This document shows, piece by piece, positions 4,586 through 28,889 of a DNA stretch of 45,305 bases. The notes below the pieces were generated by a model that saw only the letters and a program-made list of their open reading frames with translations, did no database searches and was not told the DNA's origin. Each line of letters starts with the position of its first letter. The first letter of the stretch is position 1. The DNA comes from Escherichia virus TH11. The stretch lies in the sequence record MT446389.1; one strand, given 5' to 3'. The translations under genes and the position numbers were made by a program.

Positions 4586-5970
4586 TGCGTAACTATGCGG
4601 CAGAACACCGCGCACTGGAACGCGCGATCGCAAAGCGCAACCGACCGCCGCGCCCGACACGCGTTGCGCAGGCCGTACGCCTTTACCAGCCCGATTGCCT
4701 TCCCCACCAGGTGGAACTACTGCGCGACACAAAGACCAAAATACTCGGCCTGTGTTCCGGCTTCGGTGGCGGAAAGTCATGGGTCGCGGCGCGTAAGGTC
4801 ATCCAGCTTCTGACACTGAACCCGGGTCATGACGGCATCGTGACCGAGCCGACTATCCCACTCCTGGTTAAAATCATGTATCCGGAACTGGAGAAGGCTT
4901 TCGACGAGGCTGGATTCCGGTGGAAGTTCAATAAGCAGGACAAGATTTATAGCGTGCTGGTGAAAGGCAAATGGACCCGCGTTATTTGCGAGTCAATGGA
5001 GAACTACACACGTCTTATCGGTGTTAACGCCGCGTGGATTGTTGCCGACGAGTTCGACACCACGAAGCAAGACGTTGCAATGGCGGCGTATCACAAATTG
5101 CTCGGTCGTCTGCGTGCTGGCTTGGTACGCCAGTTCGTCATCGTGTCCACCCCGGAAGGCTACCGGGCGATGTACCAGATTTTCGAAGTGGAGAAGGACA
5201 GCCAGAAACGTTTGATCCGGGCGAAGACCACGGACAACCACCATTTACCGGCGGACTTTATAGACACGCTGCGCAGTCAGTACCCAGCTAACCTGATCGA
5301 CGCGTACCTGAACGGCCTGTTTGTTAACCTTACGTCGGGCGCGGTGTACAAGATGTTCAACCGCGAGGAGAACGCCAGCACCGAAGAAGTGCAGCCGGAC
5401 GACACACTGATTATCGGTATGGACTTTAACGTCACGAAAATGGCGGCGGTTGTGTATGTCAGACGGCAGCGCGTCACCGAAAACAAGGAGTTCCGCGACG
5501 AGATTCACGCGGTGGATGAATTTGTGGACCTGTTTGACACCCCGGCTATGATTGAGGCGATCGAGGAGCGCTACCCGGAACATTGTGCCGCCGGTAGGGT
5601 CGTCGTTTACCCGGATAGCAGCGGCAAATCCCGCAAGACGGTCAACGCGTCGTCGTCCGATATCGCACAACTGGAAGACGCTGGCTTCGAGGTGGAGTAT
5701 GACAGCGTTAACCCGCCTGTGAAAGACCGACTGATCGCGATGAATACGATGATGTGCAACTCGAAGGGCGTGCGCCAGTATTTTGTCAACCTGGATAAAT
5801 GCCCTACACTAGCGAAATGTCTGGAACAGCAGGTGTACGACCTGAAGAAAGGCGAACCGGATAAAACGGCCGGGGTGGACCACATGAATGATGCAGCGGG
5901 CTATCCAATTGCGCACCTGTTCCCAGTGATTCGTCCGATCGCCGTTGTTCCAACTGTAGACTTCTACTAA
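4585..5970 (+). CDS. terminase large subunit
   Basis: 461 aa, Walker A-like GFGGGKS, acidic nuclease-type C-terminal half, precedes portal. Confidence 0.85.
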   Translation: MRNYAAEHRALERAIAKRNRPPRPTRVAQAVRLYQPDCLPHQVELLRDTKTKILGLCSGFGGGKSWVAARKVIQLLTLNPGHDGIVTEPTIPLLVKIMYPELEKAFDEAGFRWKFNKQDKIYSVLVKGKWTRVICESMENYTRLIGVNAAWIVADEFDTTKQDVAMAAYHKLLGRLRAGLVRQFVIVSTPEGYRAMYQIFEVEKDSQKRLIRAKTTDNHHLPADFIDTLRSQYPANLIDAYLNGLFVNLTSGAVYKMFNREENASTEEVQPDDTLIIGMDFNVTKMAAVVYVRRQRVTENKEFRDEIHAVDEFVDLFDTPAMIEAIEERYPEHCAAGRVVVYPDSSGKSRKTVNASSSDIAQLEDAGFEVEYDSVNPPVKDRLIAMNTMMCNSKGVRQYFVNLDKCPTLAKCLEQQVYDLKKGEPDKTAGVDHMNDAAGYPIAHLFPVIRPIAVVPTVDFY

Positions 5971-5980
5971 GGAAACGAAC

Positions 5981-7501
5981 ATGACCGTTAACGTTGACAA
6001 CCAGCACCCCCTCTATGCGCGCATCGCGCCAGAGTGGAAAATGATCCGGGATTGTGTAGCAGGGGAGCGCGCTGTGAAGGCGTGCGGCCCTTTGTACCTG
6101 CCACATCCTGCCAGCGGCGACAATACTGACCCGAAATCACGGGCGCGGTATAAGGCGTATAAGCAACGCGCTGTATTCCTGAACGCCACCGCCCGCACAC
6201 TTAACGCGCTGTTAGGCGTTGCCTTTGCTAAACCGGTAAGTCTCGACCTTTCCGGGGCGATGGCGGACCTTATTGACGACGTAGACGGCAGTGGTATGCC
6301 GCTGCCGCAACTCCTGCGCGGTGCTATGTCTGAAGTTCTGCAATCAGGTCGTGCGGGCTTTATGGTGGACTACGATCGCCAGGCGCATTTTGATGAACTG
6401 GGTAACGTAGTACCGCAGACAGCCGCTGAGATGGCGTCACACCGCCCGCTTATCCGCCTGTACACGGCAGAACAGATCATCAACTGGCGGCAGACCCACG
6501 GAGCCGATACGCTGATTGTGCTGAAGGAGACGGACGAAATCAGCACCGAAGACCCGGACGACTTCGCAAACCACGAAGTAACAATCTGGACTGAATTGCG
6601 CATGATTAACGGTGCAGCACACGCCCGCCGCTGGTACTACAACGCCGACACGTCCGAGGTGCAAATGGACTTGCCGCGCGGATTCACCCGCACCGACCTG
6701 GTGCCGCTGGTGGATGCTACCGGTAAGGCACTGACACAACTTCCGTTTTGCTGGTGTGGCGCGGTGGACAACAACGCAACGCCAGACGCCGCTCCGCTGG
6801 CAGATATCGCGTCCATCAACATTAAGCACTACAACGCCGAAGCGGACGTCGCCGAGATCGCGCACATCGTGGGCCAACCTACCCTGGTTGCGACGGGCTT
6901 GACTCAATCATGGGCGGACAAGAACCTGAAGGGAGGCATTGCCCTCGGTGCGACTAAGGGCGTTATCCTGGGCCAGAACATGGACGCTAAACTGATCCAG
7001 GCGGAGGAGCGCAACTTGTCGGTTGCACTGTGTGAGCGTCGCGAGTTGCAAATGGCTAAACTTGGCGCAGCCCTGGTTGAGAAGGGGACCGCACCTAAGA
7101 CGGCAACCGAGGCGGCCTACGATGCGCAGACTGATAACAGTATCCTGTCGCTTATTGCCGGTAACGTTGAGAAGGCTTTCAACCGTGCGCTGCAAATCGT
7201 GCAGCTATTCACGGGCGACACCGCCGACCAGCGCGTAACGCTGAACAAGTTCTACACTGAAATCACGGTTGATGCGCAGCTTATGACCGCGATGATGTCG
7301 GGTGTGCAGACTGGTACGGTCCGACTTGCTGACTTCATCAAGTGGATGATGGCCCAGGGCGTCATTGACGACTCGCAAACCGTCGAGCAGGTGGAAGACG
7401 AATTGCGAAATCAGAATCCATTGCCTCAAATGTCCCCTGATGCGGTAGAATCTACCGAAGAAGACCCGGACAAGGTAGCGGACAATGGCGAGAACGATTA
7501 A
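5981..7501 (+). CDS. portal protein
   Basis: 506 aa immediately after large terminase; acidic C-terminus; RBS AAGGAAA. Confidence 0.8.
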   Translation: MTVNVDNQHPLYARIAPEWKMIRDCVAGERAVKACGPLYLPHPASGDNTDPKSRARYKAYKQRAVFLNATARTLNALLGVAFAKPVSLDLSGAMADLIDDVDGSGMPLPQLLRGAMSEVLQSGRAGFMVDYDRQAHFDELGNVVPQTAAEMASHRPLIRLYTAEQIINWRQTHGADTLIVLKETDEISTEDPDDFANHEVTIWTELRMINGAAHARRWYYNADTSEVQMDLPRGFTRTDLVPLVDATGKALTQLPFCWCGAVDNNATPDAAPLADIASINIKHYNAEADVAEIAHIVGQPTLVATGLTQSWADKNLKGGIALGATKGVILGQNMDAKLIQAEERNLSVALCERRELQMAKLGAALVEKGTAPKTATEAAYDAQTDNSILSLIAGNVEKAFNRALQIVQLFTGDTADQRVTLNKFYTEITVDAQLMTAMMSGVQTGTVRLADFIKWMMAQGVIDDSQTVEQVEDELRNQNPLPQMSPDAVESTEEDPDKVADNGEND

Positions 7502-9949: not shown

Positions 9950-10651
9950 ATGAAACTTACTAAAGCAGAATATGACGCGTTGCCGGAAGGTATGAAGGCG
10001 CTTTTTGTTGCCGATGGTGACGGGTATAAATCAACGTTCATGACCGCAGAAGAAGTACAGGCGGAGATCAAGGGTCTGAAAGACAACAACGCGAAGCTGG
10101 TGAGCGAGAAGAAAGCAGAAGCTGAACGTCGCGCCGAAGCCGAGCGCCTTGCGAAAGAGAAAGAGGAAGCCGCCGCGCGCAAAAATGGCGACCTCGAAGC
10201 GATCGACAAGTCTTGGAAAGATAAGTTTGCGAAACACGAAGCAGACACATCGGGAAAAATCGAAGCCTATCGCAAGCAGATCCACGATCTAACCATCGGC
10301 AGCGCTGCCAAAGACCTGGCGTCGAAGCTGTTCGGTAAGAATGCGGGCATCATGCAACGCCACGTAATGGACCGCCTGACGCTGGAAGACGGCGAAGACG
10401 GCAGCTTGAAAGTGCGTGTCTTGCAGGATGGCAAACCGTCCGCGCTGACTATGGAAGAGCTTGAAAAAGAGTTCCGTAATAACGCCGATTTCGCATCCGT
10501 CCTGGCCGGCACGCCAGCAGGAGGCGCTCCTAGCAAACCGACGCAGGTTGTCGAAGATGTGAAGTCTAAAATTACGATGGGCCATAGCTTCGGTATCACC
10601 GATCTCACCAAACAGGCCGGGGATATCATCGCTAAAATGGGCGACGAGTAA
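9950..10651 (+). CDS. putative scaffolding protein
   Basis: 233 aa, K/E/A-rich coiled coil, immediately upstream of major capsid gene; start trimmed to MKLTKAEYD. Confidence 0.55.
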   Translation: MKLTKAEYDALPEGMKALFVADGDGYKSTFMTAEEVQAEIKGLKDNNAKLVSEKKAEAERRAEAERLAKEKEEAAARKNGDLEAIDKSWKDKFAKHEADTSGKIEAYRKQIHDLTIGSAAKDLASKLFGKNAGIMQRHVMDRLTLEDGEDGSLKVRVLQDGKPSALTMEELEKEFRNNADFASVLAGTPAGGAPSKPTQVVEDVKSKITMGHSFGITDLTKQAGDIIAKMGDE

Positions 10652-10654
10652 GCG

Positions 10655-10681
10655 GATTGCCCGCGAAAGCGGGCAATTTTG
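10655..10681 (+). terminator. hairpin, possible attenuator
   Basis: attgcccgc-gaaa-gcgggcaat followed by TTTT. Confidence 0.4.
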
Positions 10682-10748
10682 CGAGCGCGTAAAACTAAGG
10701 TAACATTAATGCCACTGGGCGAATGCTCACAACTCAAAGGATTTCGAT

Positions 10749-11849
10749 ATGTCTTTAACAGTGTTCCAGCGTAAACTCGTTACCGCGGTTACGCAAATGA
10801 TCCCCGACAACCTGAACGTTTTCAACGCCGCCGCCAATGGCGCTGTTGTTCTCGGTACTGGTGAAGTGCTGAAGGACGTTATTGAGAAAATGTCCGTAGG
10901 CTTGATCGCCAACCTCGTTACCGACCGTAACGCCTACGCCCCCGTCGGCACTCCGGCGACCGCGAAAGTGCTGGCGCGTATGCTAACCAACTCGGTTAAC
11001 CTTTCCGCAAAAGTGGGTCCGGTAGCAATCACTAAGGCTATGATGGCTAAGATCGAAACCAACGTTAACAGCGTTGCGGCTGAGATTGCGGCACAGGCTA
11101 CTCAAGCGATTATGCTGCACTACCTGAAAGCTGGTATCGGCGCAAGTAAAGCGGCGATCGAAAGCAACGCAGCGGCAAAATACACCCAACCGGCGCGCGT
11201 TGACGGCGTTGGCGGTCGTACCTTCCCGACCCTGGCAGACTTCCCGCTGGCGGCTTCTAAGTTCGGCGATCAGGCGTCTTTGATTAAGTCTTGGTTTATG
11301 GACGGCGTTACCTGGGCAAACTTCATTGCGTACCAGGCACTCCCTTCCGCTGAACAGGTATTCGCAATTGGCGATCTCCAGGTAATGGGTGATGGCCTGG
11401 GCCGTCGCTTCATTATCTCCGATGCCGCTGCCGATGCTATGGGGGCGGGTAACATGCTGGGTCTGGTCCCTGGCGCGGTTGCAGTTACCACCAACGGCCT
11501 CGATATGCTGGCGCAGGAGAAAGGCGGTAACGAGAACATCGAGCGCTGGTGGCAGGGCGAGTTCGACTTCAACGTGGCTGTTAAAGGCTACCGTCTGAAG
11601 GCGTCCGCTCGAACCCCGATCGAAGGTGTGCGCTCGTTCAAACTGGACGATATTACCACTTCCGCTAACTGGGAACTGGACCAGGGCCAGGTAGACAACG
11701 CACCGGCAACCGTTCAGGATGTTGGCGCTGTGGGTGATGGCGATACTAAAGGTCGTCGTAAGACCCAGGCCGCACAGGCAGTGCCTACCCGTCACATCAA
11801 GGAAACCGCGGGCGTACTGGTTACGCTGACGGCTACCACCGCGTCTTAA
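10749..11849 (+). CDS. major capsid protein
   Basis: 366 aa after scaffold and followed by a strong terminator; position and size typical. Confidence 0.75.
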   Translation: MSLTVFQRKLVTAVTQMIPDNLNVFNAAANGAVVLGTGEVLKDVIEKMSVGLIANLVTDRNAYAPVGTPATAKVLARMLTNSVNLSAKVGPVAITKAMMAKIETNVNSVAAEIAAQATQAIMLHYLKAGIGASKAAIESNAAAKYTQPARVDGVGGRTFPTLADFPLAASKFGDQASLIKSWFMDGVTWANFIAYQALPSAEQVFAIGDLQVMGDGLGRRFIISDAAADAMGAGNMLGLVPGAVAVTTNGLDMLAQEKGGNENIERWWQGEFDFNVAVKGYRLKASARTPIEGVRSFKLDDITTSANWELDQGQVDNAPATVQDVGAVGDGDTKGRRKTQAAQAVPTRHIKETAGVLVTLTATTAS

Positions 11850-16312: not shown

Positions 16313-18955
16313 ATGGCAGATCAAGCGGCAGGCATCACGCTGAAGGCTGATGTTGCACAAATCAGAACGGCAAATACTGTGCTGGACTCCTTCGCACAGA
16401 AATCCGAGAACACAGAAAACAAGGTTAAGAAATTAAACGACACCCTCGGCAAATCCAAAAAGGTCACTGGCGACGCCGCTGGTGGAATGGAGAAGCTGGC
16501 GAACGAATCGCAGCGCGCCGCCGACGGCATGACGAAACAGGAGAGACTTGCCAACAGGTTAGGCATGTCGACCAAAAACCTGGGCTTTGCCTCGCGTAAC
16601 GCCGCATTCCAGTTACAGGATATCGCAGTTACGCTTGAGATGGGTATGCCTGTTCACCGCGTCATGCTTCAGCAGTTACCGCAGCTAACTGGGGCGTTCG
16701 GCGGTCTTGGTAACACGCTGCGTTTTGTTGCGGGCTTCCTCGGTCCGGTAGGGATCGGCATTGCAGCACTAACGGCAACGTTAGGCGTAGGAGTGGCGGT
16801 TACGTCCCGTGCCGAAAACCAGGTCGCAGCGCTTAACAAGACGCTGGCGCTGTCCGGTAACATTTCCGGCCTCACTGCAAACCAGATCCTTGTGCTATCC
16901 GAGAACGCCGAGCGCATGGGCGGGTCATTCCGCAAGACGCGTGACACAATCCAGGCGTTGGCGGCGGCGGGTGTGAAAGCGGGTGCGGACTTCGGCACGC
17001 TGGCGAAAGTGGTGAATGACTTTGCGAAGGTGTCCAGCCAGCCGGTCGAGGATGTGGTCGCGGCGGTGGCGAAGCTGTCTACAGACCCGGTAGGCGGCTT
17101 GCGAGCATTGGCTGATAAGTATCACGTCGTAAACGAAGCGCAGATCCAGCAGGTGCAGTCGCTTGTGGATATGGGTCGCGAAACCGAAGCGGTGGCGCTG
17201 GCTAACAAAACAGCCGCAGCGTCGTTTACCACTATGACCAACGATATTAAGTCCAACATGGGTACGCTTGAGCGTTCGATGAACGTCGTCACATCGGCAG
17301 CTAAATCAATGTGGGATGCCATCCTGGATGTTGGACGCGCGCAGTCCTCTAATGAGTCTGAGATGAAAGCGCGTGAATCATTGCAGAGGCTGACCACGGC
17401 TTACTATGCCGAGATGAAAGCGGTAAACGCTGCCGGTGGGGTGATGACCGAAGCGCAGAAAGCGCGTATTAACATGCTTTACAGCGAACTGGTAGCCCAG
17501 GAGAAGGTGGTGGCATCGCTCACCCTGCGCAACCGTGCCGAGCGAGACAACGCAAATGCCGCGGACGAAGCAGCAAAGGCGAACGAAGAGGCAAACCGCA
17601 CCGCCCGCGACCGCGCTGCGTTTGAGAAGGAGTACGCAACCAACGCGAAGCGGCGAGCCGACGAGATCGCCCGCCTCAATTTGCTGAATAAGCGCGGTGT
17701 TATTAACGAGAAAGAGCTTGCCGAGGCGGTGAAGCAGGTAAACGAGCGTTACAAAGACCCCGCCCCGAAGAAGGCCGCCGCTGTTCGAGTCGATGCCGGG
17801 CTGAAAATGCTGGAAGTCGCGCGAAGCGAATTAGCCCAGCTTCGTGAGTCTGGAAAGCAGATCGAAGCCAACTATTCGACGCAGACCCGCACGCAACGCG
17901 CGCAAGCGGCCCTTAACAAGCTGATTGCCGACAACGAGCAGTTAATCGCTGCGAGCAAAGAAAGGGCGCTGACGGCAGCAGAGAAGCAGCAAATGGCGGG
18001 ATTCGAGGCGGTTAAATCTGTACGCGAGCAGATCGTCGAAGAAGCCAAATTGCTGGACGCGAAAGAGAAGCAGGTCAAGGCGCACGCGCAGATCGACGCC
18101 TTCGTTAAGAACCAGAACGCCGAGCTAAAAGCCACCGCGGCGGGCTATGCGCTTTCCACTCGCGAAGCGGCTAACCTGCGCGAAGAATTGCAGCTAATTG
18201 ACCGCCTTAAGCGGGTGGGCGCTAGTGATACCGATATTGATCTGGCGGTGTCTAAGCTGCGCGAAGTGCAGGAAGCACAGACCGGTGCTAACGCCTCGCT
18301 ATGGGATGGATTAAGCCGCGGGCTTAAGGATAGCGTTGATGAAATGGGTAACGGCTATACGCAGATGGCGTCACTAACAAAATTCACGTTCGGCGCTATG
18401 CAGGACACGATGAACGAGTTTTTCGAGACTGGCAAGCTGAACGCAAAGGATATGGTTAAGTCCATCCTGAGCGAATTAATCAAGCTGGCTACATCGCAGG
18501 CGTTCAAGTCCATCGTTAGCGCTTTCGGTGGCGACGGCGGCAAAAACGGATTGTTCGGTGCTATCTTCTCCGGCCTGACTAAGAATGCGGACGGCGGAGC
18601 GTACGCAGGGGGCAATCTCGCGGCCTATTCGGGGCAAGTGGTAAGCCAGCCTACCTTTTTCAGTTACGGCGTCCAGGCGTTCGCTAAGGGTGCTGGATTG
18701 ATGGGGGAGGCTGGACCCGAGGCCATCATGCCGCTGAAGCGCGGGCCAGACGGGAAACTTGGCGTTGCCGCTGCCGGTGTAGGCGGGGGGATGATTGTAA
18801 CGACCAACGTTAACATGGGGACCGGTAAGACGGATACCAGTGTTAGCGGACCAGACCCGCGCACCGCGCAGGCGTTCGGAAAGCAAATCACCGAGTCGGT
18901 CAAGGCCGAGATCGTGAAGGCGACGAAACCGGGTGGTGTACTTTACAAACGATGA
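16313..18955 (+). CDS. tail tape measure protein
   Basis: 880 aa, A/Q/E/K-rich coiled coil, Gly-rich C-terminus, between chaperone and tip genes. Confidence 0.85.
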   Translation: MADQAAGITLKADVAQIRTANTVLDSFAQKSENTENKVKKLNDTLGKSKKVTGDAAGGMEKLANESQRAADGMTKQERLANRLGMSTKNLGFASRNAAFQLQDIAVTLEMGMPVHRVMLQQLPQLTGAFGGLGNTLRFVAGFLGPVGIGIAALTATLGVGVAVTSRAENQVAALNKTLALSGNISGLTANQILVLSENAERMGGSFRKTRDTIQALAAAGVKAGADFGTLAKVVNDFAKVSSQPVEDVVAAVAKLSTDPVGGLRALADKYHVVNEAQIQQVQSLVDMGRETEAVALANKTAAASFTTMTNDIKSNMGTLERSMNVVTSAAKSMWDAILDVGRAQSSNESEMKARESLQRLTTAYYAEMKAVNAAGGVMTEAQKARINMLYSELVAQEKVVASLTLRNRAERDNANAADEAAKANEEANRTARDRAAFEKEYATNAKRRADEIARLNLLNKRGVINEKELAEAVKQVNERYKDPAPKKAAAVRVDAGLKMLEVARSELAQLRESGKQIEANYSTQTRTQRAQAALNKLIADNEQLIAASKERALTAAEKQQMAGFEAVKSVREQIVEEAKLLDAKEKQVKAHAQIDAFVKNQNAELKATAAGYALSTREAANLREELQLIDRLKRVGASDTDIDLAVSKLREVQEAQTGANASLWDGLSRGLKDSVDEMGNGYTQMASLTKFTFGAMQDTMNEFFETGKLNAKDMVKSILSELIKLATSQAFKSIVSAFGGDGGKNGLFGAIFSGLTKNADGGAYAGGNLAAYSGQVVSQPTFFSYGVQAFAKGAGLMGEAGPEAIMPLKRGPDGKLGVAAAGVGGGMIVTTNVNMGTGKTDTSVSGPDPRTAQAFGKQITESVKAEIVKATKPGGVLYKR

Positions 18956-18990: not shown

Positions 18991-19590
18991 ATGTCACAAG
19001 GTACAATCACACTAACGAACGGAAGTAAGACCGTCACGGGCGCGGGGACGGCGTTCCTGAGCGAGATTGGGAAGGTCCGCGTATTTGCTCGCATCGACGG
19101 CAACGACTACACCGGCAAAATTGCAGCATTCAACTCTAACACCGTCATCACCCTGGCGGATAACTGGGCAGGTCCGACAAAAGCCGGTGTGGCTTATGAG
19201 CTAATCGAAGCGCACGACCCGCGATCAAACGAATGGCCATATTACTGGCACATGCAATTGCAGGGCGGCGGCGACGTGCAGTTAGCTTTCCGATCCGAGG
19301 AATTGCAATTCGGTAATGGTTACGGGCAGAACATCGCGGACGGCCCGAACGCCGAGACGAAACAATTTCCCGTGCAATTCATCGGACTGACTACTGACAA
19401 GTGGTGCGACCCTAAACTGGTTTACAACTTTCTTCGCGGTCACTTCGTCAAGCCGTTTGTTGTCACCGCGCCGGATGGCGAAACAGGTTTATTCGTGGTC
19501 GAGCGTTCGAGCTTGTCGTACACTGACAACGGACACAACACGGCAACGGTATCCGCCACCCTTAAGACAGCTATTGGATTCGTAAGATGA
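18991..19590 (+). CDS. minor tail protein (lambda M-like position)
   Basis: 199 aa first gene after tape measure; N-terminus GTITLTNGSKTVTGAGTAF resembles tail fiber N-terminus at 26465. Confidence 0.5.
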   Translation: MSQGTITLTNGSKTVTGAGTAFLSEIGKVRVFARIDGNDYTGKIAAFNSNTVITLADNWAGPTKAGVAYELIEAHDPRSNEWPYYWHMQLQGGGDVQLAFRSEELQFGNGYGQNIADGPNAETKQFPVQFIGLTTDKWCDPKLVYNFLRGHFVKPFVVTAPDGETGLFVVERSSLSYTDNGHNTATVSATLKTAIGFVR

Positions 19591-21118: not shown

Positions 21119-21726
21119 CCACGTTTAAATTGTACGGCGTCTTAGGGCGTCGTTTTGGTAAAGTGCATAAGCTGGACTGCTTCACACCGGGAGAAGGCAT
21201 CACCGGCCTGTGTGTGAAGTTGCCAGGGTTACAAGACTTTTTAATGTCGGCCCACCTGGACAATATGATGTTCAAGGTGCGCAAAGGCAACCACACGATG
21301 ACCGGTTATGATGAGCTTGGCGAGTTCCACGGCGACCGCGTCGTTACCATCGCGCCGGTTATGACGGGGGCAAAAAGCGGACTGGGCCAATTGCTGGCGG
21401 GTGTCGCGATTGTAGTGGCGTCGTTCTATACTGGCGGACTTGCTACTGCCGCTTTCGGGGCTTCGGCTGCAACCGCTGCCGCTATCGGTACGGCTACATT
21501 TTCGTTTGGCATGTCGCTTGCGCTGGGCGGTGCTATGCAATTGCTGTCGCCGCAGCCGAAAGGATTGCAGACCCGGCAGGACGTGGATAACAAAGCGTCG
21601 TATGCGTTCGGCGGCCCAGTAAACACGACCGCGCAAGGTACGGCGCTTGGTGTATTATGGGGCGAGCGTGAGATCGGCGGCGCTATTATTTCAGCCGGAA
21701 TCGTAACCGAGGATTTGAACGAATGA
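21109..21726 (+). CDS. tail assembly protein I-like
   Basis: 205 aa, Gly/Ala-rich hydrophobic C-terminal half, between K-like and J-like genes. Confidence 0.7.
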   Translation: MAMTTFKLYGVLGRRFGKVHKLDCFTPGEGITGLCVKLPGLQDFLMSAHLDNMMFKVRKGNHTMTGYDELGEFHGDRVVTIAPVMTGAKSGLGQLLAGVAIVVASFYTGGLATAAFGASAATAAAIGTATFSFGMSLALGGAMQLLSPQPKGLQTRQDVDNKASYAFGGPVNTTAQGTALGVLWGEREIGGAIISAGIVTEDLNE

Positions 21727-24700
21727 CGATTGTCTATGACGTCACAGGCCATAAAGGCGGCGGTGGCAAACAGCACACCCCACAGGAGACACCCGATAGC
21801 CTGCATTCGCTGGCTAAAATCCGCATCTTGCTTGCGCTGGGAGAAGGTGAGTTCGAAGGTATTCCAGACCCTAACGAATTACGGCGGCGCGTATATCTGG
21901 ACGGAACACCGATCCAGAATGCAGACCTGTCTGAAAACTTCCCAGGCGCGCGTGTGGAGTTCCGCCCCGGAACACAGCACCAGGATGTGATCCACGGATT
22001 TTCAGCGGTGGAAAGTGAGCAATCTGTCGGCGTAAAACTGGAAAACGGCACGCCGTGGGTGCGCCAGATTAACGACACCAGTTTGGACGCCGTGCGCATT
22101 CGCATCGGCATTCCGGCCCTGTACACAAACGAAGATAATGGCGACCTGGTGGGCGGGCGCATCGACTATAAGATCGTTGTGTATACGGATAACGCGGACC
22201 CGCGTGAGTTCAGATTCGCCGCCGTTGGTAAAACAATGTCGCTGTATGAGCGTGACCACCGCATCGAATTACCTCCGAACGTTAACACCGGCTGGCGCGT
22301 GGAGGTGCACCGCATAACGGCAGACTCCACATCGGCGAAAGTGGTTAATGATATCCAGGTGCAATCCATCACTGAGATTATTGACGCCCGCCTGCGTTAC
22401 CCGCTAACCGCGCTGTTGTTCGTGGAGTTCGACGCTAAAGCGTTCCAGAACATCCCGCGCGTGTCCATTAAGTGCAAAGGTCGCAAGGTGTTGATCCCGA
22501 ACAACTACGACCCGATTAACCATACCTATTCGGGCGACTGGGACGGCACGTTTAAACGCGCATGGACGGATAACCCAGCGTGGCACTGGTACGATATTTG
22601 TATTACTGAGCGCTTCGGCCTCGGGCGTAGGATCAAGCCGCAAATGCTGAACCGGTACGCGCTATACCAGATTGCGCAGCGCTGCGACCAGATGGTAAGC
22701 GACGGCAACGGCGGGCAGGAAATCCGATTTAAGAATGATATGTACATCCAGTCGCAGACCGACGCCTGGACCGTGCTTAAGGATCTAGCTGCCATCTTTG
22801 CCGGTATGACCTGGTGGGGAAACCAGATGTTGAATATCGTAAGCGACCAGCCGGTCGCAGCGGTATCGCACACTATCACCAACGCCTCGGTTATTGATGG
22901 TAGATTCGACTACGCATCGGGTAGCCAGAAAACTCGCTATTCCACGTTCGCGGTAGCATACGGCAACCCGAAGAACCACTACGAAGACGCCATCGCAACG
23001 GGCCAGCGTGTCGAACTGGTGCGCCGCCATAAAATCAACCGCCTTGATATTACGGCGATCGGCTGTACGCGTGAATCAGAAGCGCAACGCCGCGGTCACT
23101 GGGCGCTAATCTCCAACCAGCTTGACCAGCAAGTTAGCTTTAAGGTTGGCATGGAGGGACTTTTCTTTATTCCGGGTAGCGTAGTCGCGATCGCGGATAC
23201 AAACATTTCTGGCGGCTTCGAGACTCGCGGCGGTCGCCTGTTGTCGGATCCTGGCACGCGGACGGTGCTGAACACAGACAGCGAAATCACGTTCCGCCCT
23301 GGCGATAAATTCCTGGTACGCACCGATAGCGGTAATGTGGAGACTCGCGAGATCGCCAGCGTCAACGGCAACAAGGTTACGCTAAAAACCGCACTGGATG
23401 CCGACCCGATTCCGGACCAGCCGTTTTGCGTTGATGGCGACGATATCCAGTTGCAGAAGTTCCGCATCACCGACCTGGAATATGACGACTCTACCAGCAC
23501 TTTTTCAGTGCGCGGGATCGAGTACAACGATAGCAAATACGATGCCGTTGATAATGGCGCTCGTCTTGACCCAGGCATCTTTACGCAAGTGCCTGACGGC
23601 GTAATGAAGGGGCCGGAGTCCGTGACCATCACCCCGTCGCAGATTTCATCGCAAGGCCAGCTAATCACCAACGTGGATATTGTTTTCCCGCCGGTGAAGG
23701 ATGCCGTTGTATATGAAATCCAGTGGCGGCGTACCAGCCTGCAGAATATGGAAATCCAGTGGGGTAACGACTGGGTGAACATTCCCCGCACGGCATCGAA
23801 CGGTGCGCACATCCCGAACGTGTTTTCCGGAAACTATCAGGCGCGCGTTCGCGCAATCGGTATGGGCGAAATTTCATCCCCGTGGGTGTCGTCTGCCATC
23901 ACGCCGATCGAAGGTCGTCTCGGTGGGCTTAACGCGCCTATCATCACAAACGCTATTCCGGGCCTCCACCAAATTCTATGGAAGTGGAACCACAACAACG
24001 CCGCTACGGATATATCATACACCGAGCTTGAAGTCCGCAAGCGGGGCGAAATGGAATGGAAGTTCTTGACCAACGTCCCATATCCGGGGTCAGACTATGC
24101 GCAAACGTCGCTGGAGTTCGGGATCTACCAGCAGTTGCGCGCCCGTGTAGCAGATAAAATCGGCAACCTGTCGGACTGGTCCGCCCCGTTTGAAGGCCAG
24201 GTGAGTGACAAAGTTGACGAGTACATGAAGGGGCTTGATGACGAGTTCTTGACTTCCGAGGATGGTAAACACTTCCAGGAAGCAATAGACACGATCCCGC
24301 AAGGTATCTATGAGTCTATGCTCACCGACGCCCAGCAGCTATTCAATGCCCGCGCCGAGTATAAAGGGATTTATGCGGAAATAACGGTGGCGTATAACGT
24401 GGCGACGGACGCCCACAAGGCGGTAGCGCAACTTGAGACGTTGATCGGAACGCGCCTTGACGATGCGGAAGCGTCAATCCACACGTTGCAGACCGCGCAA
24501 AGCACGCACGAACAAGCGTTCGCCCAGTACCAACAAACTGTTGCCGCTAAGTTCGGGGAACAGGAAGCCGCCATCCAGCAAGTACAAACGGCAACGGCAG
24601 ACGTAGCGGGCGCACTGGCGGAGTATAAGACCCAGGTCGCGGCGCAGTTCGGGCAGCAGTCCGCAGCTATCGAGCAGAAGATGACGTCCACGTTTAACCA

Positions 24701-25169
24701 TGCCGGTGGCAACGCCACATACAGCCTTAAGGCGGGCGTGACGTATAACGGGACTTACTACGATGCCGGTATGCAGCTTTCAGTTGTGGCGGAAGGCGGT
24801 GCGGTTAAATCCCGCATCGCGTTCAAGGCGGACCAGTTCTACATCATGCACCCGTCGAATGGGTCGCTTACATCCGCGTTTATCGTCGACGGCGGGCAGG
24901 TGTACATCGACACAGCACGTATCAAGAACGCGTCAATCAACTTCGCGCAGATCACTGACACGCTTCAGTCCAATAACTGGAATCCGGGCAGCAGCGGCTG
25001 GCGTATCGCGAAGGATGGCGGGGCGGAGTTCAACAACGTAACGGTACGCGGCAACCTGTTCGCGACCACGGGTAACTTCGGATTCTCCGGCGGGTCGGTA
25101 CAGATCGACGCAACCGGCATTAACGTGCCATTACCTGGAGGGGGTAGGGTGAAAGTAGGGACGTGGTAA
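21723..25169 (+). CDS. central tail fiber / host specificity protein J-like
   Basis: 1148 aa following I-like gene; size and synteny typical of lambda J. Confidence 0.85.
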   Translation: MTIVYDVTGHKGGGGKQHTPQETPDSLHSLAKIRILLALGEGEFEGIPDPNELRRRVYLDGTPIQNADLSENFPGARVEFRPGTQHQDVIHGFSAVESEQSVGVKLENGTPWVRQINDTSLDAVRIRIGIPALYTNEDNGDLVGGRIDYKIVVYTDNADPREFRFAAVGKTMSLYERDHRIELPPNVNTGWRVEVHRITADSTSAKVVNDIQVQSITEIIDARLRYPLTALLFVEFDAKAFQNIPRVSIKCKGRKVLIPNNYDPINHTYSGDWDGTFKRAWTDNPAWHWYDICITERFGLGRRIKPQMLNRYALYQIAQRCDQMVSDGNGGQEIRFKNDMYIQSQTDAWTVLKDLAAIFAGMTWWGNQMLNIVSDQPVAAVSHTITNASVIDGRFDYASGSQKTRYSTFAVAYGNPKNHYEDAIATGQRVELVRRHKINRLDITAIGCTRESEAQRRGHWALISNQLDQQVSFKVGMEGLFFIPGSVVAIADTNISGGFETRGGRLLSDPGTRTVLNTDSEITFRPGDKFLVRTDSGNVETREIASVNGNKVTLKTALDADPIPDQPFCVDGDDIQLQKFRITDLEYDDSTSTFSVRGIEYNDSKYDAVDNGARLDPGIFTQVPDGVMKGPESVTITPSQISSQGQLITNVDIVFPPVKDAVVYEIQWRRTSLQNMEIQWGNDWVNIPRTASNGAHIPNVFSGNYQARVRAIGMGEISSPWVSSAITPIEGRLGGLNAPIITNAIPGLHQILWKWNHNNAATDISYTELEVRKRGEMEWKFLTNVPYPGSDYAQTSLEFGIYQQLRARVADKIGNLSDWSAPFEGQVSDKVDEYMKGLDDEFLTSEDGKHFQEAIDTIPQGIYESMLTDAQQLFNARAEYKGIYAEITVAYNVATDAHKAVAQLETLIGTRLDDAEASIHTLQTAQSTHEQAFAQYQQTVAAKFGEQEAAIQQVQTATADVAGALAEYKTQVAAQFGQQSAAIEQKMTSTFNHAGGNATYSLKAGVTYNGTYYDAGMQLSVVAEGGAVKSRIAFKADQFYIMHPSNGSLTSAFIVDGGQVYIDTARIKNASINFAQITDTLQSNNWNPGSSGWRIAKDGGAEFNNVTVRGNLFATTGNFGFSGGSVQIDATGINVPLPGGGRVKVGTW

Positions 25170-26162: not shown

Positions 26163-26384
26163 TTACCACTCCCGTGATTTAACTGATACCGTACCAGAGA
26201 AGTTGCCGTCACTATCGGCAGACAGACCAGTGAAGCGCATATCCACATCTCCGGCTGGCACTTTCTTCCCGTCGACGTAGCGCAACATGCAGCTACCGTA
26301 GGCAACCGTAATGCAATCGCCGTTGTTGCGTTCTACAGCACAACCGGACAACAGAACCGCACAAATCATAATTAAAGTTTTCAT
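26163..26384 (-). CDS. small lipoprotein, candidate superinfection-exclusion factor
   Basis: 73 aa from internal ATG; signal peptide MKTLIMICAVLLSGC with lipobox; RBS AGGAG; between RBP-type genes. Confidence 0.55.
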   Translation of the reverse strand: MKTLIMICAVLLSGCAVERNNGDCITVAYGSCMLRYVDGKKVPAGDVDMRFTGLSADSDGNFSGTVSVKSREW

Positions 26385-26438
26385 GGTATCATCTCCTATA
26401 TTTGGTTGAGTTTTAGTATTACACCGCTCGATCAAGAA

Positions 26439-26448: not shown

Positions 26449-26464
26449 TTACGAGGATTTAGCT

Positions 26465-28288
26465 ATGGCAGCGGGTACTCTATCCGTAACGAATAACAGC
26501 AAGGCGGTTGTCGGGGTAGGCACGACGTTTACCACGTTTACAGCTGGCGACTTCTTAACGCTGGTGGTAGGGCAAGTCCCATACACTGTTGCTATCGCGT
26601 CAGTCGAAAGCGACACCGCGCTTACGCTGGTGCTGCCGTTCGACGGCCCCACGGCAACCGATCTCGCGTGGGATGGCGTTAAGCGCGATACCATGTCACT
26701 GGCGACGATGGGCGTAACCGTACAGGCACAGAAAGCATTGCGCTTGATGCTTGCAGATGAAAACAACTGGCGTGCAATCTTCGGCGACGCTGAAGAAATA
26801 ACCGTGACGTTGCCTAACGGGCAGGTAATGCAGGGTATGTCATGGGGATATCTGTCGCAGTTGATGAAACAGGTCGACCCAGTTGAGATGCGCAACCTGC
26901 AACAGCAAGCCGCCGCATCGGAAGCCGCCGCGCTGGTGTCACGCAACGAGGCCGAAGGCTTCAAGACTGAGACGGCAGGCATTCGCGACGCCACCAATCA
27001 GATTAAGGCAGACACACAGGCGATCCACGACGCCACGAATACCATCAAGACGCAGACCGACCAGATTAAGACCGACACGCAGGCCATCAAGGACCAGACG
27101 AACCAGATCAAGACCGACACCGGCGTTATGAGGGACGAGGCAAACACCGCGAAGACTGACGCGCAAGCCGCCAGCACTGCCGCGCAGGGATATCGCGACC
27201 AGGCCGAGGAATGGGCGCAAAGCGTTAACGCGGATAACCTGCTAACCAAATCCGGCAACCTCGCGGGGCTTGCGGACAAAAGTGCGTCGTGGGCTAACCT
27301 TATGCCGTCCGGCCCGCTTCGAGTAGGCGCTGATCCCGTCGACAATCTGGACGCTGCGACTAGAGGATGGGTGTGGCGCGGTCTTGATGACGTGGGGGTG
27401 TGGGCCTTACGCAATAACTATGCTTCGGAACCCGCTGGCGGCGCAGAAGTATACGGCGGTCGCTTCGACTCATCTGCGAACGTCGCAGGGGCCGAAAAAT
27501 ACAGAATGTCGCTGCAACTTCAGGGATTTAATAACGTAGACGCCTGGACACGTTTGGTTACCGCTGACGTCCGCAGCATGGTGAACGCGGCGACGTGGGA
27601 CTTTAAGATCGATGGTAAGTTGCTTTTCAACAAAGGATTGGTTACATCATCCATCTCGGCGTCGCCCGGTAACACCTATGTCACCCTTGCGAATACATGG
27701 AGTGACAGCCAATACTCAGGCCACGTAGGTTTTGTCGGAGGGGGAACTGGGGTGTCTAATGGTGGGTGGCGTAACTTTATTTCGTTCGGGGCGCTGATCC
27801 ACCCACTAGCCGGTAACTCACACCCCCACGCTATGATTTCGCAGGTCTTTGACTATGATTTGTCGACTGGGGTACAGCCCAACGGCGATATCGTTCGAAA
27901 CACAACATTCAACCCCGAAGCATACGATATTACTTTCGGCAACAACTCAGGGACTGTTAACTATCTTTTTTCAAAGTCCCCAGTATCCGACAGGGCGCTG
28001 AAGCATGATATCGCCAGGATCGATACTCAAGTCGCGTACGATAACGTTATGGCTATGGAGTACTCGTCCTTTGTTTATAACTACGACAAAAAAGAGACGG
28101 TTAGACGTGGTTTTATCGCGCAGCAGTTGGAAGAGATCGACCCGCAGTATGTCCGTAAGTACGCCAACGCAACCGGTAAAGAGTCTCTGGCATTGGATGA
28201 AAACGTTCTACTACTGGACCTTATCGCGACTGTTCAGCATTTAGCGGCAAAGGTTGAAGCCTTAGAAAGTAAGTTAGCGGATAAATAA
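26465..28288 (+). CDS. tail fiber protein with C-terminal S74-type intramolecular chaperone domain
   Basis: C-terminus SDRALKHDIARID...; coiled-coil repeats TxQIKxDTQAI; start trimmed to MAAGTLSV because the track ATG lies inside the regulatory motif. Confidence 0.7.
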   Translation: MAAGTLSVTNNSKAVVGVGTTFTTFTAGDFLTLVVGQVPYTVAIASVESDTALTLVLPFDGPTATDLAWDGVKRDTMSLATMGVTVQAQKALRLMLADENNWRAIFGDAEEITVTLPNGQVMQGMSWGYLSQLMKQVDPVEMRNLQQQAAASEAAALVSRNEAEGFKTETAGIRDATNQIKADTQAIHDATNTIKTQTDQIKTDTQAIKDQTNQIKTDTGVMRDEANTAKTDAQAASTAAQGYRDQAEEWAQSVNADNLLTKSGNLAGLADKSASWANLMPSGPLRVGADPVDNLDAATRGWVWRGLDDVGVWALRNNYASEPAGGAEVYGGRFDSSANVAGAEKYRMSLQLQGFNNVDAWTRLVTADVRSMVNAATWDFKIDGKLLFNKGLVTSSISASPGNTYVTLANTWSDSQYSGHVGFVGGGTGVSNGGWRNFISFGALIHPLAGNSHPHAMISQVFDYDLSTGVQPNGDIVRNTTFNPEAYDITFGNNSGTVNYLFSKSPVSDRALKHDIARIDTQVAYDNVMAMEYSSFVYNYDKKETVRRGFIAQQLEEIDPQYVRKYANATGKESLALDENVLLLDLIATVQHLAAKVEALESKLADK

Positions 28289-28291
28289 GGA

Positions 28292-28316
28292 GAAGGGGCC
28301 ATACGGCCCCTTTTTA
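28292..28316. terminator. bidirectional hairpin terminator
   Basis: aaggggcc-atac-ggcccctt followed by TTTTT; between convergent genes. Confidence 0.55.
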
Positions 28317-28889
28317 GTTTGAGTTTTCCCAGTCCATTTTGCGCCGCACCAGCGGACTCTCGTAATACTCCTTACCCTCCACTTCCACCAAAGGCCAGTC
28401 GTTCACGATTACGTACGGTTCCGCGATATCCTCAATCACGCCGTGCGCGCTATGTTGCCCGAACGCTACGCCAACCAGGATGACACCGGCAACTCGACGG
28501 GATAGATATTCTCGAGCGCAACGTGCCTCGACCAGTCCGCGACGGATGCCGCTGGTGGCTTTGACCTCGTAGGTCCAGACGGCATCAATCATGTGCTCAC
28601 GGAAGTCGGGGCCGGACTTAACCTTGCGCTTACCGACCATGATAATATCGCCGCGGTCGATAGTATTTGCGCTAAACAGGCCAGTACGCATAAGCAAACC
28701 TTGCGGGATACAACTACGCCCGCCTGCCAGCCCTTCAAGGTACATGCCTGCAAACATCTCGCCCAGCACACCGACAAGACGGCTTTGCTTGCACGCGTCA
28801 GACTTTAAGCGCCACTGGTCAAACTCGACGCTTGCTAACATTGCCGCGATGTGGAATTGTTTACCGGTTATTTCATATTCGCCGTACAT
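28314..28889 (-). CDS. hypothetical protein, possible PD-(D/E)XK-like fold
   Basis: 191 aa, last gene of leftward operon; weak GD...D...EVK pattern only. Confidence 0.45.
   Translation of the reverse strand: MYGEYEITGKQFHIAAMLASVEFDQWRLKSDACKQSRLVGVLGEMFAGMYLEGLAGGRSCIPQGLLMRTGLFSANTIDRGDIIMVGKRKVKSGPDFREHMIDAVWTYEVKATSGIRRGLVEARCAREYLSRRVAGVILVGVAFGQHSAHGVIEDIAEPYVIVNDWPLVEVEGKEYYESPLVRRKMDWENSN

Follow-up and report, generated by a model that had tools for sequence, protein, structure and literature searches.

The gene at positions 26465 to 28288 of the window (the whole 45,305-nt stretch of DNA analysed here) raises the question of what its product does on the phage tail and, if it is a fibre, where on the tail tip that fibre would be fastened. 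The gene and its translation start are as follows.

26453..26457, + strand: ribosome-binding site GAGGA, read from the sequence, 7 nt upstream of the ATG at 26465
26465..28288, + strand: gene for a lateral tail fibre (607 aa and a stop codon), which closes the tail module on the + strand

The gene is 100% identical to that of Escherichia virus TH13 (MT446391), and the TH13-matching window belongs by taxonomy to the genus Dhillonvirus. It encodes the Dhillonvirus lateral (side) tail fibre. Specifically, the product matches phrog_1980, ‘tail fiber protein’, over aa 1-605 (E=3e-121), the annotated tail-fibre genes of other Dhillonviruses are 86-94% identical to it, the 148 phage records found by megablast are nearly all Escherichia phages, and the homologous CDS of phage AV129 is annotated with an equal length of 1824 nt. 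An in-frame ATG at 26438, which would give a longer open reading frame, was rejected as the start as it has no ribosome-binding site. The gene order is TMP-M-L-K-I-J-(receptor-binding protein and lipoprotein on the minus strand)-fibre, and the fibre keeps this position, behind the J, receptor-binding protein and lipoprotein genes, in AV129 and in 15 IMG/VR Dhillonvirus loci. Earlier papers already describe this gene, including the S74 domain and the conserved anchor at its 5' end: the BASEL papers report a lateral tail fibre locus in Dhillonvirus that is conserved at its far 5' end only and targets the O-antigen (PMC8594841, PMC11990801), and intramolecular autocatalytic chaperones were noted in the tail fibres of Dhillonvirus JLBYU60 (PMC12309495). 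What we add is modest. From homology we place the fibre, in a way that can be tested, on the shaft of the central fibre J, and we view a barrel carried by the distal tail protein (Dit) as a paralog of the fibre anchor that the phage can do without; neither point alters the current view of siphovirus adsorption.

We put forward a hypothetical model, to which we assign a probability of roughly 0.8, of a modular homotrimeric Dhillonvirus side fibre made of an anchor, a coiled coil, a junction, a distal binder and an S74 chaperone, with the Dit barrel as an accessory. The fibre gene is divided as follows.

26465..26683, + strand: N-terminal six-stranded beta-barrel, the fibre anchor domain (aa 1-73)
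26684..26884, + strand: stem (aa 74-140), modelled as a long helix (74-105), a beta-hairpin (112-124) and a helix (127-135)
26885..27223, + strand: coiled-coil shaft (aa 141-253), from heptads, the TRF period, a 63-nt repeat and a model helix
27224..27400, + strand: conserved junction (aa 254-312), ...NLLTKSGNLAGLADKSASWANL...GADP...LDAATRGWV, a recombination boundary
27401..27985, + strand: variable beta-rich distal part, presumed to bind the receptor (aa 313-507), from model strands and phrog_6921
27986..28285, + strand: Peptidase_S74 intramolecular chaperone (aa 508-607), from Pfam, an invariant Ser/Lys pair, Foldseek and profile matches

Secondary structure is taken from predicted models, of which the full-length AF2 monomer is poor (mean pLDDT 63) and weak in the N-domain. 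We propose that the anchor module, the barrel together with the helical stem, fastens the fibre to the tail tip, that the heptad coiled coil serves as the proximal shaft and the junction as a seam for recombination, and that the distal part binds a surface glycan, most likely the O-antigen, as a reversible first receptor. The S74 domain would nucleate folding of the trimer and then excise itself by means of a Ser508/Lys513 dyad, so that the 65.4-kDa uncleaved chain is predicted to shed a fragment of 11.4 kDa and leave a mature fibre of 54.0 kDa. The Dit barrel would have come from a fibre-type anchor that became fused to Dit, and fibre attachment would not require it.

The middle of the protein is a coiled coil of the trimeric type. 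About 13 xDTxxIK heptads, in the protein register, cover aa 161-251, and the predicted model has an unbroken helix at aa 139-253. The original prediction was right to see coiled-coil repeats here but not in describing the underlying DNA as imperfect repeats of about 30 bp, a length that was rejected: the period reported by TRF is 21, two directly repeated 63-nt copies (26993-27055 and 27056-27118) are 71% identical, and the self-identity of the DNA peaks at shifts of 42, 105, 63, 84 and 21 (0.45-0.51), compared with 0.37 at a shift of 30.

By alignment, the junction is the recombination boundary between a conserved proximal and a variable distal half. Of 112 homologs aligned from the N-terminus, 41 stop matching at aa 270-279 and 18 at aa 300-309, while 47 run the full length, and by megablast 18 of the 148 records cover at least 80% of the fibre gene, the rest matching from nt 1 to about 870-900 only. 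The junction motif aligns to residues 480-583 of DT57C LtfA, and the segment offers a natural seam for engineered fibre swaps. The distal part is modelled with strands at aa 328-503 (pLDDT 50-85) and is matched by phrog_6921. A fold search with the predicted model of aa 313-507 gave no significant match; in sequence, this part is 77% identical to that of an E. coli O70:H38 prophage fibre, P0022. An exchangeable lateral fibre directed at the O-antigen would limit the host range of Dhillonvirus.

The anchor belongs to a large family that has a second member within the window, on the distal tail protein.

18991..19590, + strand: distal tail protein (gpM-like Dit), 199 aa, from Pfam Phage_min_tail and identity to 23gd_B
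18991..19209, + strand: paralogous beta-barrel on Dit (aa 1-73), from barrel homology to the fibre

Phage_min_tail matches Dit aa 86-193, and among solved structures the protein is matched by chain 23gd_B, ‘Distal tail protein gp20’, at about 97% identity (E=1.9e-130). In the fibre, the barrel is modelled at aa 5-72 and is followed by a helix at 74-105. A resemblance between the N-termini of the fibre and of the protein at 18991..19590 had been predicted, and their alignment bears this out: in BLASTP, 70 aa align at 34% identity (E=9e-8, 38.5 bits), far beyond chance. There are also PHROG cross-matches (phrog_9922 with the fibre; phrog_1980, phrog_17834 and phrog_28473 with Dit), and a two-sequence profile finds 3830 protein clusters at E<=1e-3. 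On these grounds chance similarity was rejected, and by sequence comparison the two N-termini are true homologs. The barrel lies mostly at residues 1-73 of fibre-like proteins of 250-800 aa, and its profile matches the F2-pyocin side fibre 25ve_A (E=1e-4). The stem segment is matched in 107 of 141 representative family members; in fibre proteins, stem and barrel are conserved as a unit, with R93, N101, W102 and W127 of the stem nearly invariant. When the 80-aa N-domain alone was used in a word-indexed homolog search, two metagenomic fragments were returned. Neither the fibre nor the barrel profile matched an Ur-lambda Stf chain in the PDB, and the fold of the anchor is a small barrel different from the Stf collar domain.

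The homologous anchor of the F-type pyocin side fibre was seen by cryo-EM to dock on the shaft of the central fibre rather than on the baseplate or Dit. There, the N-domain (residues 2-76) sits on the central-fibre coiled coil, the domains of two of the three protomers form a pseudo-sixfold ring and the stem helices pack on the shaft (PMC13455828, PMC12874032, bioRxiv 10.64898/2026.02.24.707460). The corresponding central fibre of the window is J.

21723..25169, + strand: J-like central tail fibre, 1148 aa, matching 23gd_D with 2525 bits
24210..24308, + strand: conserved acidic motif of J (aa 830-862)
24273..24677, + strand: alpha-helical shaft of J (about aa 851-985), proposed docking site of the lateral fibre

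J aa 895-1100 are homologous to residues 980-1185 of the F2-pyocin central fibre 25vf_A (E=3e-18). Based on this double homology with F-type pyocins, of the side-fibre N-domain and of the central-fibre shaft, we infer that the fibre anchor may encircle the start of the J alpha-helical shaft, a placement to which we give slightly better than even odds, with docking on the Dit ring being less likely. The J C-terminal domain is found in 63 of 65 non-Dhillonvirus loci with the fibre anchor, whatever their Dit type. An anchor of the pyocin type would call for an acidic, kinked gap in the shaft that basic residues of the anchor touch. Where the shaft begins, J proteins that co-occur with the anchor keep the sequence DDxFLTSxDG across different hub types, and the fibre stem carries the basic residues K73, R74, K90 and R93. 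In the window the acidic motif reads DDEFLTSEDG...TIPQG (J aa 838-861) and lies in a segment that failed to align to the pyocin fibre; a PDB sequence search found no match between this motif and the pyocin docking gap. The proposed docking segment (aa 830-870) is located upstream of the stretch of J that aligns with the pyocin central fibre. In Mantel tests on 16 Dhillonvirus genomes, the fibre barrel did not co-vary with the J shaft (r=0.08); for the J tip there was a weak, uncorrected correlation (r=0.22, p=0.04), which we treat as uninformative. In 23gd, a solved Dhillonvirus tip, both Dit and J are present, but no chain was found to match the fibre. The J shaft is the same shaft in which a coiled-coil-to-beta-prism switch occurs in the F7 pyocin, so that fibres docked on it would have to release on triggering.

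The alternative that survives best, although we consider it unlikely, is that six barrels on the hexameric Dit form a ring on which the fibre barrels dock, as plug and socket, at the tube-tip junction. Its analogues would be dodecameric collars such as those of Stf in Ur-lambda and p132 in T5, and both these phages attach their fibres through collars of small domains around Dit. The F-pyocin domain does self-associate laterally into a six-membered ring, with the domain of the third protomer left peripheral, and all 16 standard Dhillonvirus genomes examined (the window and the 15 IMG/VR loci) carry the barrel on both Dit and the fibre. However, two Dhillonvirus contigs (L082 and L083), in which J shares 98% and the fibre anchor 95% identity with TH13, have a Dit of 123 aa that lacks the barrel, as does the similarly short Dit of L084, all three being metagenome assemblies. 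Outside the genus, every one of the 65 anchor-bearing loci has the barrel on the fibre only, alongside two other types of Dit. Moreover, the two barrels do not co-vary across the 16 Dhillonvirus genomes (Mantel r=-0.01, p=0.48), the Dit barrel scores higher against barrels from the fibres of other phages (about 50 bits) than against those of the TH13 type (27 bits with phmmer; 38.5 by BLASTP between the two proteins of the window), and it lacks the stem.

Taken with the near-identity of J and the anchor in L082 and L083, the short Dit in these contigs and the fibre-only barrel in the 65 other loci argue that attachment is independent of the Dit copy. Hence the Dit barrel is probably a lineage-specific accessory decoration and not an obligatory partner, and the fibre probably attaches without it; Dit itself needs no docking module, being built into the tail tip as a ring (its solved structure is 23gd_B). 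The original prediction of a shared baseplate-docking module thus stands in part: the role as an anchor holds for fibres, given the F-pyocin homolog, but that homolog docks on the central-fibre shaft and the Dit copy can probably be dispensed with. As both copies occur in all 16 genomes, the Dit barrel may still have a cooperative role with the fibres. In L082 and L083 the short Dit is accompanied by an insertion of about 150 aa in gpL, seemingly an interchangeable accessory module; a megablast search of the INPHARED collection found no cultured phage with this short-Dit/long-gpL cassette. In the literature searched, no paper on PDB 23gd or on Dit/fibre paralogy was found. A more speculative reading, which we regard as unlikely, is that the Dit gene captured a fibre anchor, so that a six-fold collar is built into the tube-tip junction; the barrel may then cooperate with the lateral fibres, for example by holding the barrel of the third, peripheral protomer or by stowing the fibres, or may itself bind host glycans, and would be exchanged as an accessory module. 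If true, it would be an undescribed, swappable ‘tip-decoration cassette’ of small siphoviruses.

Irrespective of where the fibre docks, its C-terminus is a bona fide S74-type intramolecular chaperone as judged by sequence and predicted fold. Pfam Peptidase_S74 (PF13884) matches aa 508-563 with E=1.6e-11, its 44.7 bits exceeding the cut-off of 22. Ser508 (codon 27986-27988) and Lys513 (codon 28001-28003), in the motif SDRALK, are invariant across 38 full-length homologs, the equivalent residues are also invariant in 12 divergent C-terminal tails, and SDxxxK is retained by 80 distinct and very divergent tails. The same i/i+5 spacing of Ser and Lys occurs in endoNF (S911/K916) and T5 pb1 (S1264/K1269). 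In Foldseek the predicted domain (pLDDT 74-90 over aa 520-607, with a C-terminal helix at 579-606) matches 7dc3, the MyRF ICA (E=2.6e-5), and 3gw6, the endoNF chaperone (E=3e-3), and profiles of the region match 8hqz_d, 8jov_1, 7dc3, 6f45 and 3gud, the last of which begins exactly at the Ser aligned to Ser508. We therefore agree with the earlier assignment of a self-cleaving type of chaperone domain, for which a comparison with S74 domains and T5 pb1-type fibres had been suggested (the latter represented by DT57C LtfA, 8hqz_d, E=4e-12), and we predict self-cleavage directly before Ser508. A self-releasing chaperone would also explain the absence of a separate fibre-assembly chaperone gene downstream.

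It is very improbable that the S74-like C-terminus is instead a degenerate relic that stays uncleaved on the mature fibre. Such a reading can appeal to the kind of support available for TH13, sequence and predicted fold, but would have to accommodate the invariance of the dyad in full-length homologs and its persistence in the 80 divergent tails, a Pfam score of twice the gathering cut-off, a fold that resembles active chaperones and the lack of a chaperone gene downstream. The description of homologs in several Dhillonvirus GenBank records as ‘putative tail tip protein’, which would make the product a central tip component rather than a lateral fibre, was rejected, since M, L, K, I and J with the DUF6453 receptor-binding protein fully account for the tip, the product has the architecture of a fibre with an anchor homologous to the side-fibre anchor seen by cryo-EM, and the BASEL papers name this type of protein as the lateral tail fibre.

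The closest known systems are the lateral fibres of other Dhillonviruses (GeorgBuechner and other BASEL isolates, AV129, McMelon, JLBYU60), which are encoded by the same gene at the same position. The allele nearest to that of TH13 has 94% identity along the entire protein, and homologs that have only the proximal half in common are 83-93% identical over that half; it is the distal allele alone that differs, with PF25670 or Collar domains at this place in some relatives. The side fibres of F-type pyocins (PyoF13, PA0643, PA0646; PDB 25ve, 25vj) likewise have an N-terminal barrel followed by a helical stem, and their partner central fibre (PA0641, 25vf) has a shaft and tip homologous to J of the window, with a lambda-like hub in both. 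They differ in having separate chaperones (PyoF14/15), an R-pyocin-like receptor-binding domain and no S74 domain, and the pyocin Dit lacks the barrel that the TH13 Dit carries; docking was seen in the pyocin, whereas for TH13 we infer it on J. T5 pb1 and DT57C LtfA have the same role, that of an optional O-antigen-binding lateral fibre in a siphovirus with a porin as terminal receptor, and aa 207-312 and 511-606 of the window fibre align to residues 480-583 and 962-1071 of LtfA (8hqz_d, E=4e-12). T5-like fibres are, however, attached via a separate dodecameric collar protein (p132/LtfC, Ig-like) and their N-termini are unrelated to that of the window fibre; the TH13 tail module contains no p132/LtfC-type collar gene, and in AV129 and TH13 there is no extra structural gene between the tape measure and the fibre. 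Ur-lambda Stf has an N-terminal collar domain that forms a dodecamer around gpV/gpM, and the window fibre has no such domain. The chaperone domains of endoNF and MyRF share the fold and the Ser-Lys dyad of the S74 domain, but are attached to a sialidase tailspike and a eukaryotic transcription factor, respectively, and this module alone is common to them and the window fibre. Finally, T5 pb9 and the Dit of phage Chi also carry decoration barrels, whereas the barrel of TH13 Dit is N-terminal and can be recognised, at 34% identity, as a copy of a fibre anchor.

The 607-residue ORF at 26465-28288 (+) is genuine and was known before: it encodes the lateral tail fibre of a published phage and carries a canonical S74 chaperone domain whose cleavage is predicted. 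Its 1824-nt region is 100% identical to that of Escherichia virus TH13 (MT446391), an unclassified Dhillonvirus whose GenBank record carries no annotation, and tail-fibre genes of many other coliphages are 86-94% identical to it; homologs in many Dhillonvirus GenBank records are labelled “putative tail tip protein” or “hypothetical protein”. The genes around the ORF form a lambda-like siphovirus tail module:

16313-18955, tape measure protein
18991-19590, gpM-like distal tail protein (Dit)
after Dit and before J in module order, gpL, gpK and gpI
21723-25169, J-like central fibre, 1148 residues
25195-26169 (-), DUF6453 protein, between J and the fibre (phrog_1265, E=6e-118)
26163-26384 (-), Cor-like phage lipoprotein, between J and the fibre
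26465-28288 (+), the fibre, after the DUF6453 and Cor-like lipoprotein genes
28314-28889 (-), 191-residue protein directly downstream of the fibre on the opposite strand (phrog_10558, unknown function, E=7e-117)
downstream of the fibre (-), replication-module genes

The original prediction placed the fibre start correctly at 26465, as GAGGA lies 7 nt upstream and the AV129 homolog is annotated at equal length. A mechanical ORF list extends both the fibre and the Dit by in-frame upstream ATGs; that at 26438, which opens the longest fibre ORF, was rejected for want of a ribosome-binding site, and that at 18952 is an unlikely Dit start, given that the solved chain 23gd_B begins MSQGT. For the 191-residue protein, a Pfam scan returned no match and phrog_10558 was the sole match. 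The BASEL papers call the DUF6453 and Cor-like lipoprotein region the “bona fide RBP locus”; the DUF6453 gene is inverted in eight Dhillonvirus loci, its homolog is co-directional with the fibre gene in 32 non-Dhillonvirus loci, and in the loci L019, L021, and L074 it lies between J and the fibre.

The C-terminal chaperone motif noticed at the outset is a genuine Peptidase_S74 domain (Pfam E=1.6e-11, twice the gathering score), and an earlier publication notes that tail fibres of Dhillonvirus have an intramolecular autocatalytic chaperone (PMC12309495). Ser508 and Lys513 (in SDRALK) are both unchanged across 38 homologs and are retained in 80 distinct tails, the rest of which has drifted to 25-47% identity. 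The alignment to S74 proteins that had been suggested as a check bears this out, since a profile of those tails matches the solved S74 domains of DT57C LtfA, phage GP4, MyRF, S16 gp37, and the GA-1 neck appendage, the released chain of which begins at exactly the aligned Ser. The predicted fold agrees as well: modelled by AF2 at pLDDT 74-90, the domain has structural matches in the MyRF ICA domain (E=2.6e-5) and in the endoNF chaperone (E=3e-3).

The central repeats are likewise real coiled-coil repeats, about 13 xDTxxIK units over residues 161-251 enclosed in a single helix predicted by AF2 (residues 139-253), but their units are heptads. The proposed DNA period of roughly 30 bp is therefore wrong: the DNA repeats every 21 bp and includes a 63-bp duplication (71% identity), and when shifted by multiples of 21 it matches itself at 0.45-0.51, versus 0.37 at a shift of 30.

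The fibre is modular. At least 80% of the gene is covered in 18 of 148 matching phage records, the remainder sharing only its first ~870-900 nt, and protein-level alignments end at residues 270-310, inside a conserved junction (residues 254-312) that also aligns to DT57C LtfA. Beyond it the homologs are highly varied, their distal halves carrying S74 together with various distal domains, or else PF25670 or Collar. This agrees with the Dhillonvirus lateral tail fibre locus described by BASEL, which is conserved at its far 5' end only and for whose fibre the O-antigen serves as an initial, facultative receptor (PMC8594841; PMC11990801). A prophage fibre of E. coli O70:H38 (P0022, on a 53.7-kb contig) is 77% identical over residues 192-607 and has an N-terminus (MIYTTGTIAISGNTVTGLGTNF...) unlike that of the TH13 fibre, which we take as evidence that a virulent phage and a prophage have exchanged distal modules.

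The N-terminal resemblance between the fibre and the Dit proved to be true homology by pairwise alignment (34% identity over 70 residues, E=9e-8; 38.5 bits by BLASTP), with reciprocal PHROG cross-hits. A profile built from the two copies and searched against 1.84 billion representative proteins defines a family of 3830 clusters at E≤1e-3 (484 at E≤1e-10), in most members of which the barrel forms residues 1-73 of a 250-800-residue protein; two of the three members of this kind that were scanned have fibre-type C-termini (S74, PF25670, or Collar). In the confident AF2 model from a diverse alignment (pLDDT 88), six strands form a beta-barrel, after which come a helix of 32 residues, a hairpin, and a second, short helix. 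In fibres the barrel is followed by a conserved stem (residues 74-140), present in 107 of 141 representatives and absent from the Dit copy. Elsewhere the barrel is repeated in tandem, up to 14 times, within giant PKD-containing proteins. Five array proteins (P0123, P0124, P0125, P0130, and P0139; 1000-2900 residues) carry 10-14 copies of the 70-residue barrel, PKD domains are present in all three array proteins scanned (P0123, P0124, and P0126), and P0126 has a weak NHL match. Fusion to a gpM-like Dit was found in one cluster only. Two solved chains match the profile, namely 23gd_B, the Dhillonvirus “distal tail protein gp20” (~97% identical to the Dit here), and 25ve_A, an F2-pyocin side fibre (E=1e-4).

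The original prediction took the two N-termini to be a shared baseplate-docking module; the homology and the anchoring role of the fibre copy stand, while the Dit copy appears to be a dispensable paralogous decoration and the J shaft the likelier dock. Among 80 IMG/VR loci recovered with the barrel, all 15 Dhillonvirus loci have it in both Dit and fibre and all 65 others in the fibre only, their Dit being short and gpM-like (35), phrog_1302-type (20), or not detected (10); J with the same C-terminal domain is found in 63 of these 65. In a whole-Dit search the fusion is limited to a tight cluster (83-98% identity), the nearest relatives outside it being 122-125 residues long without a barrel. 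Two of these short-Dit relatives were looked at in their gene context. The metagenome-assembled Dhillonvirus contigs L082 and L083, from separate sequencing runs (Logan SRR4022240 and SRR19633711), match TH13 in tape measure protein (95%), J (98%), DUF6453 protein (92%), and fibre anchor (95%), and have a 123-residue Dit without the barrel (core 65% identical) and a 415-residue gpL with a ~150-residue insertion for which a Pfam scan gave no match; the more distant L084 also pairs a short Dit with an anchor-bearing fibre. In these otherwise near-identical Dhillonvirus contigs, the alternative cassette of short Dit and long gpL spans 10001-11609 (L082) and 5772-7380 (L083), and megablast found it in none of 50,697 phage collection records. 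The Dit barrel looks like a captured fibre anchor, a lineage-specific decoration rather than the obligatory socket of the fibre. It scores ~50 bits against fibre barrels of other phages versus 27 bits against TH13-type ones (phmmer), and across 16 Dhillonvirus genomes it (18991-19209) is more variable and faster evolving than the core (19228-19587; mean distance 0.089 versus 0.030).

The fibre N-module is an anchor, and we propose by homology, at a probability of roughly 55%, that it most likely docks on the J shaft. [quoted passage not shown] The TH13 J hub is homologous to the pyocin central fibre (E=7e-225), as are its shaft and tip (J 895-1100 versus residues 980-1185, E=3e-18), and hence both pyocin interaction partners have TH13 homologs. 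An acidic motif at the shaft start is common to the J proteins of all phage groups with the fibre anchor, related forms (DDFLTSADGD, LIDDGIQKSDAF) being kept in J proteins with differing hubs: it reads VDEYMKGLDDEFLTSEDG...TIPQG in TH13 (DDEFLTSEDG then TIPQG; J residues 830-862, 24210-24308), ADDYLGDIADDFLTSADGD in lambdoid prophages, and LIDDGIQKSDAF in a third hub type. The TH13 motif resembles the acidic gap of the F7 pyocin (Asp950, 951, 953, 954, and 961), and we hypothesize that it is a candidate docking site equivalent to that gap, a proposal kept at this level because the J segment gives no sequence alignment to the pyocin fibre. The J shaft (residues 851-985) corresponds to 24273-24677 and, with the tip, is homologous to the F-pyocin central-fibre region. 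[quoted passage not shown]
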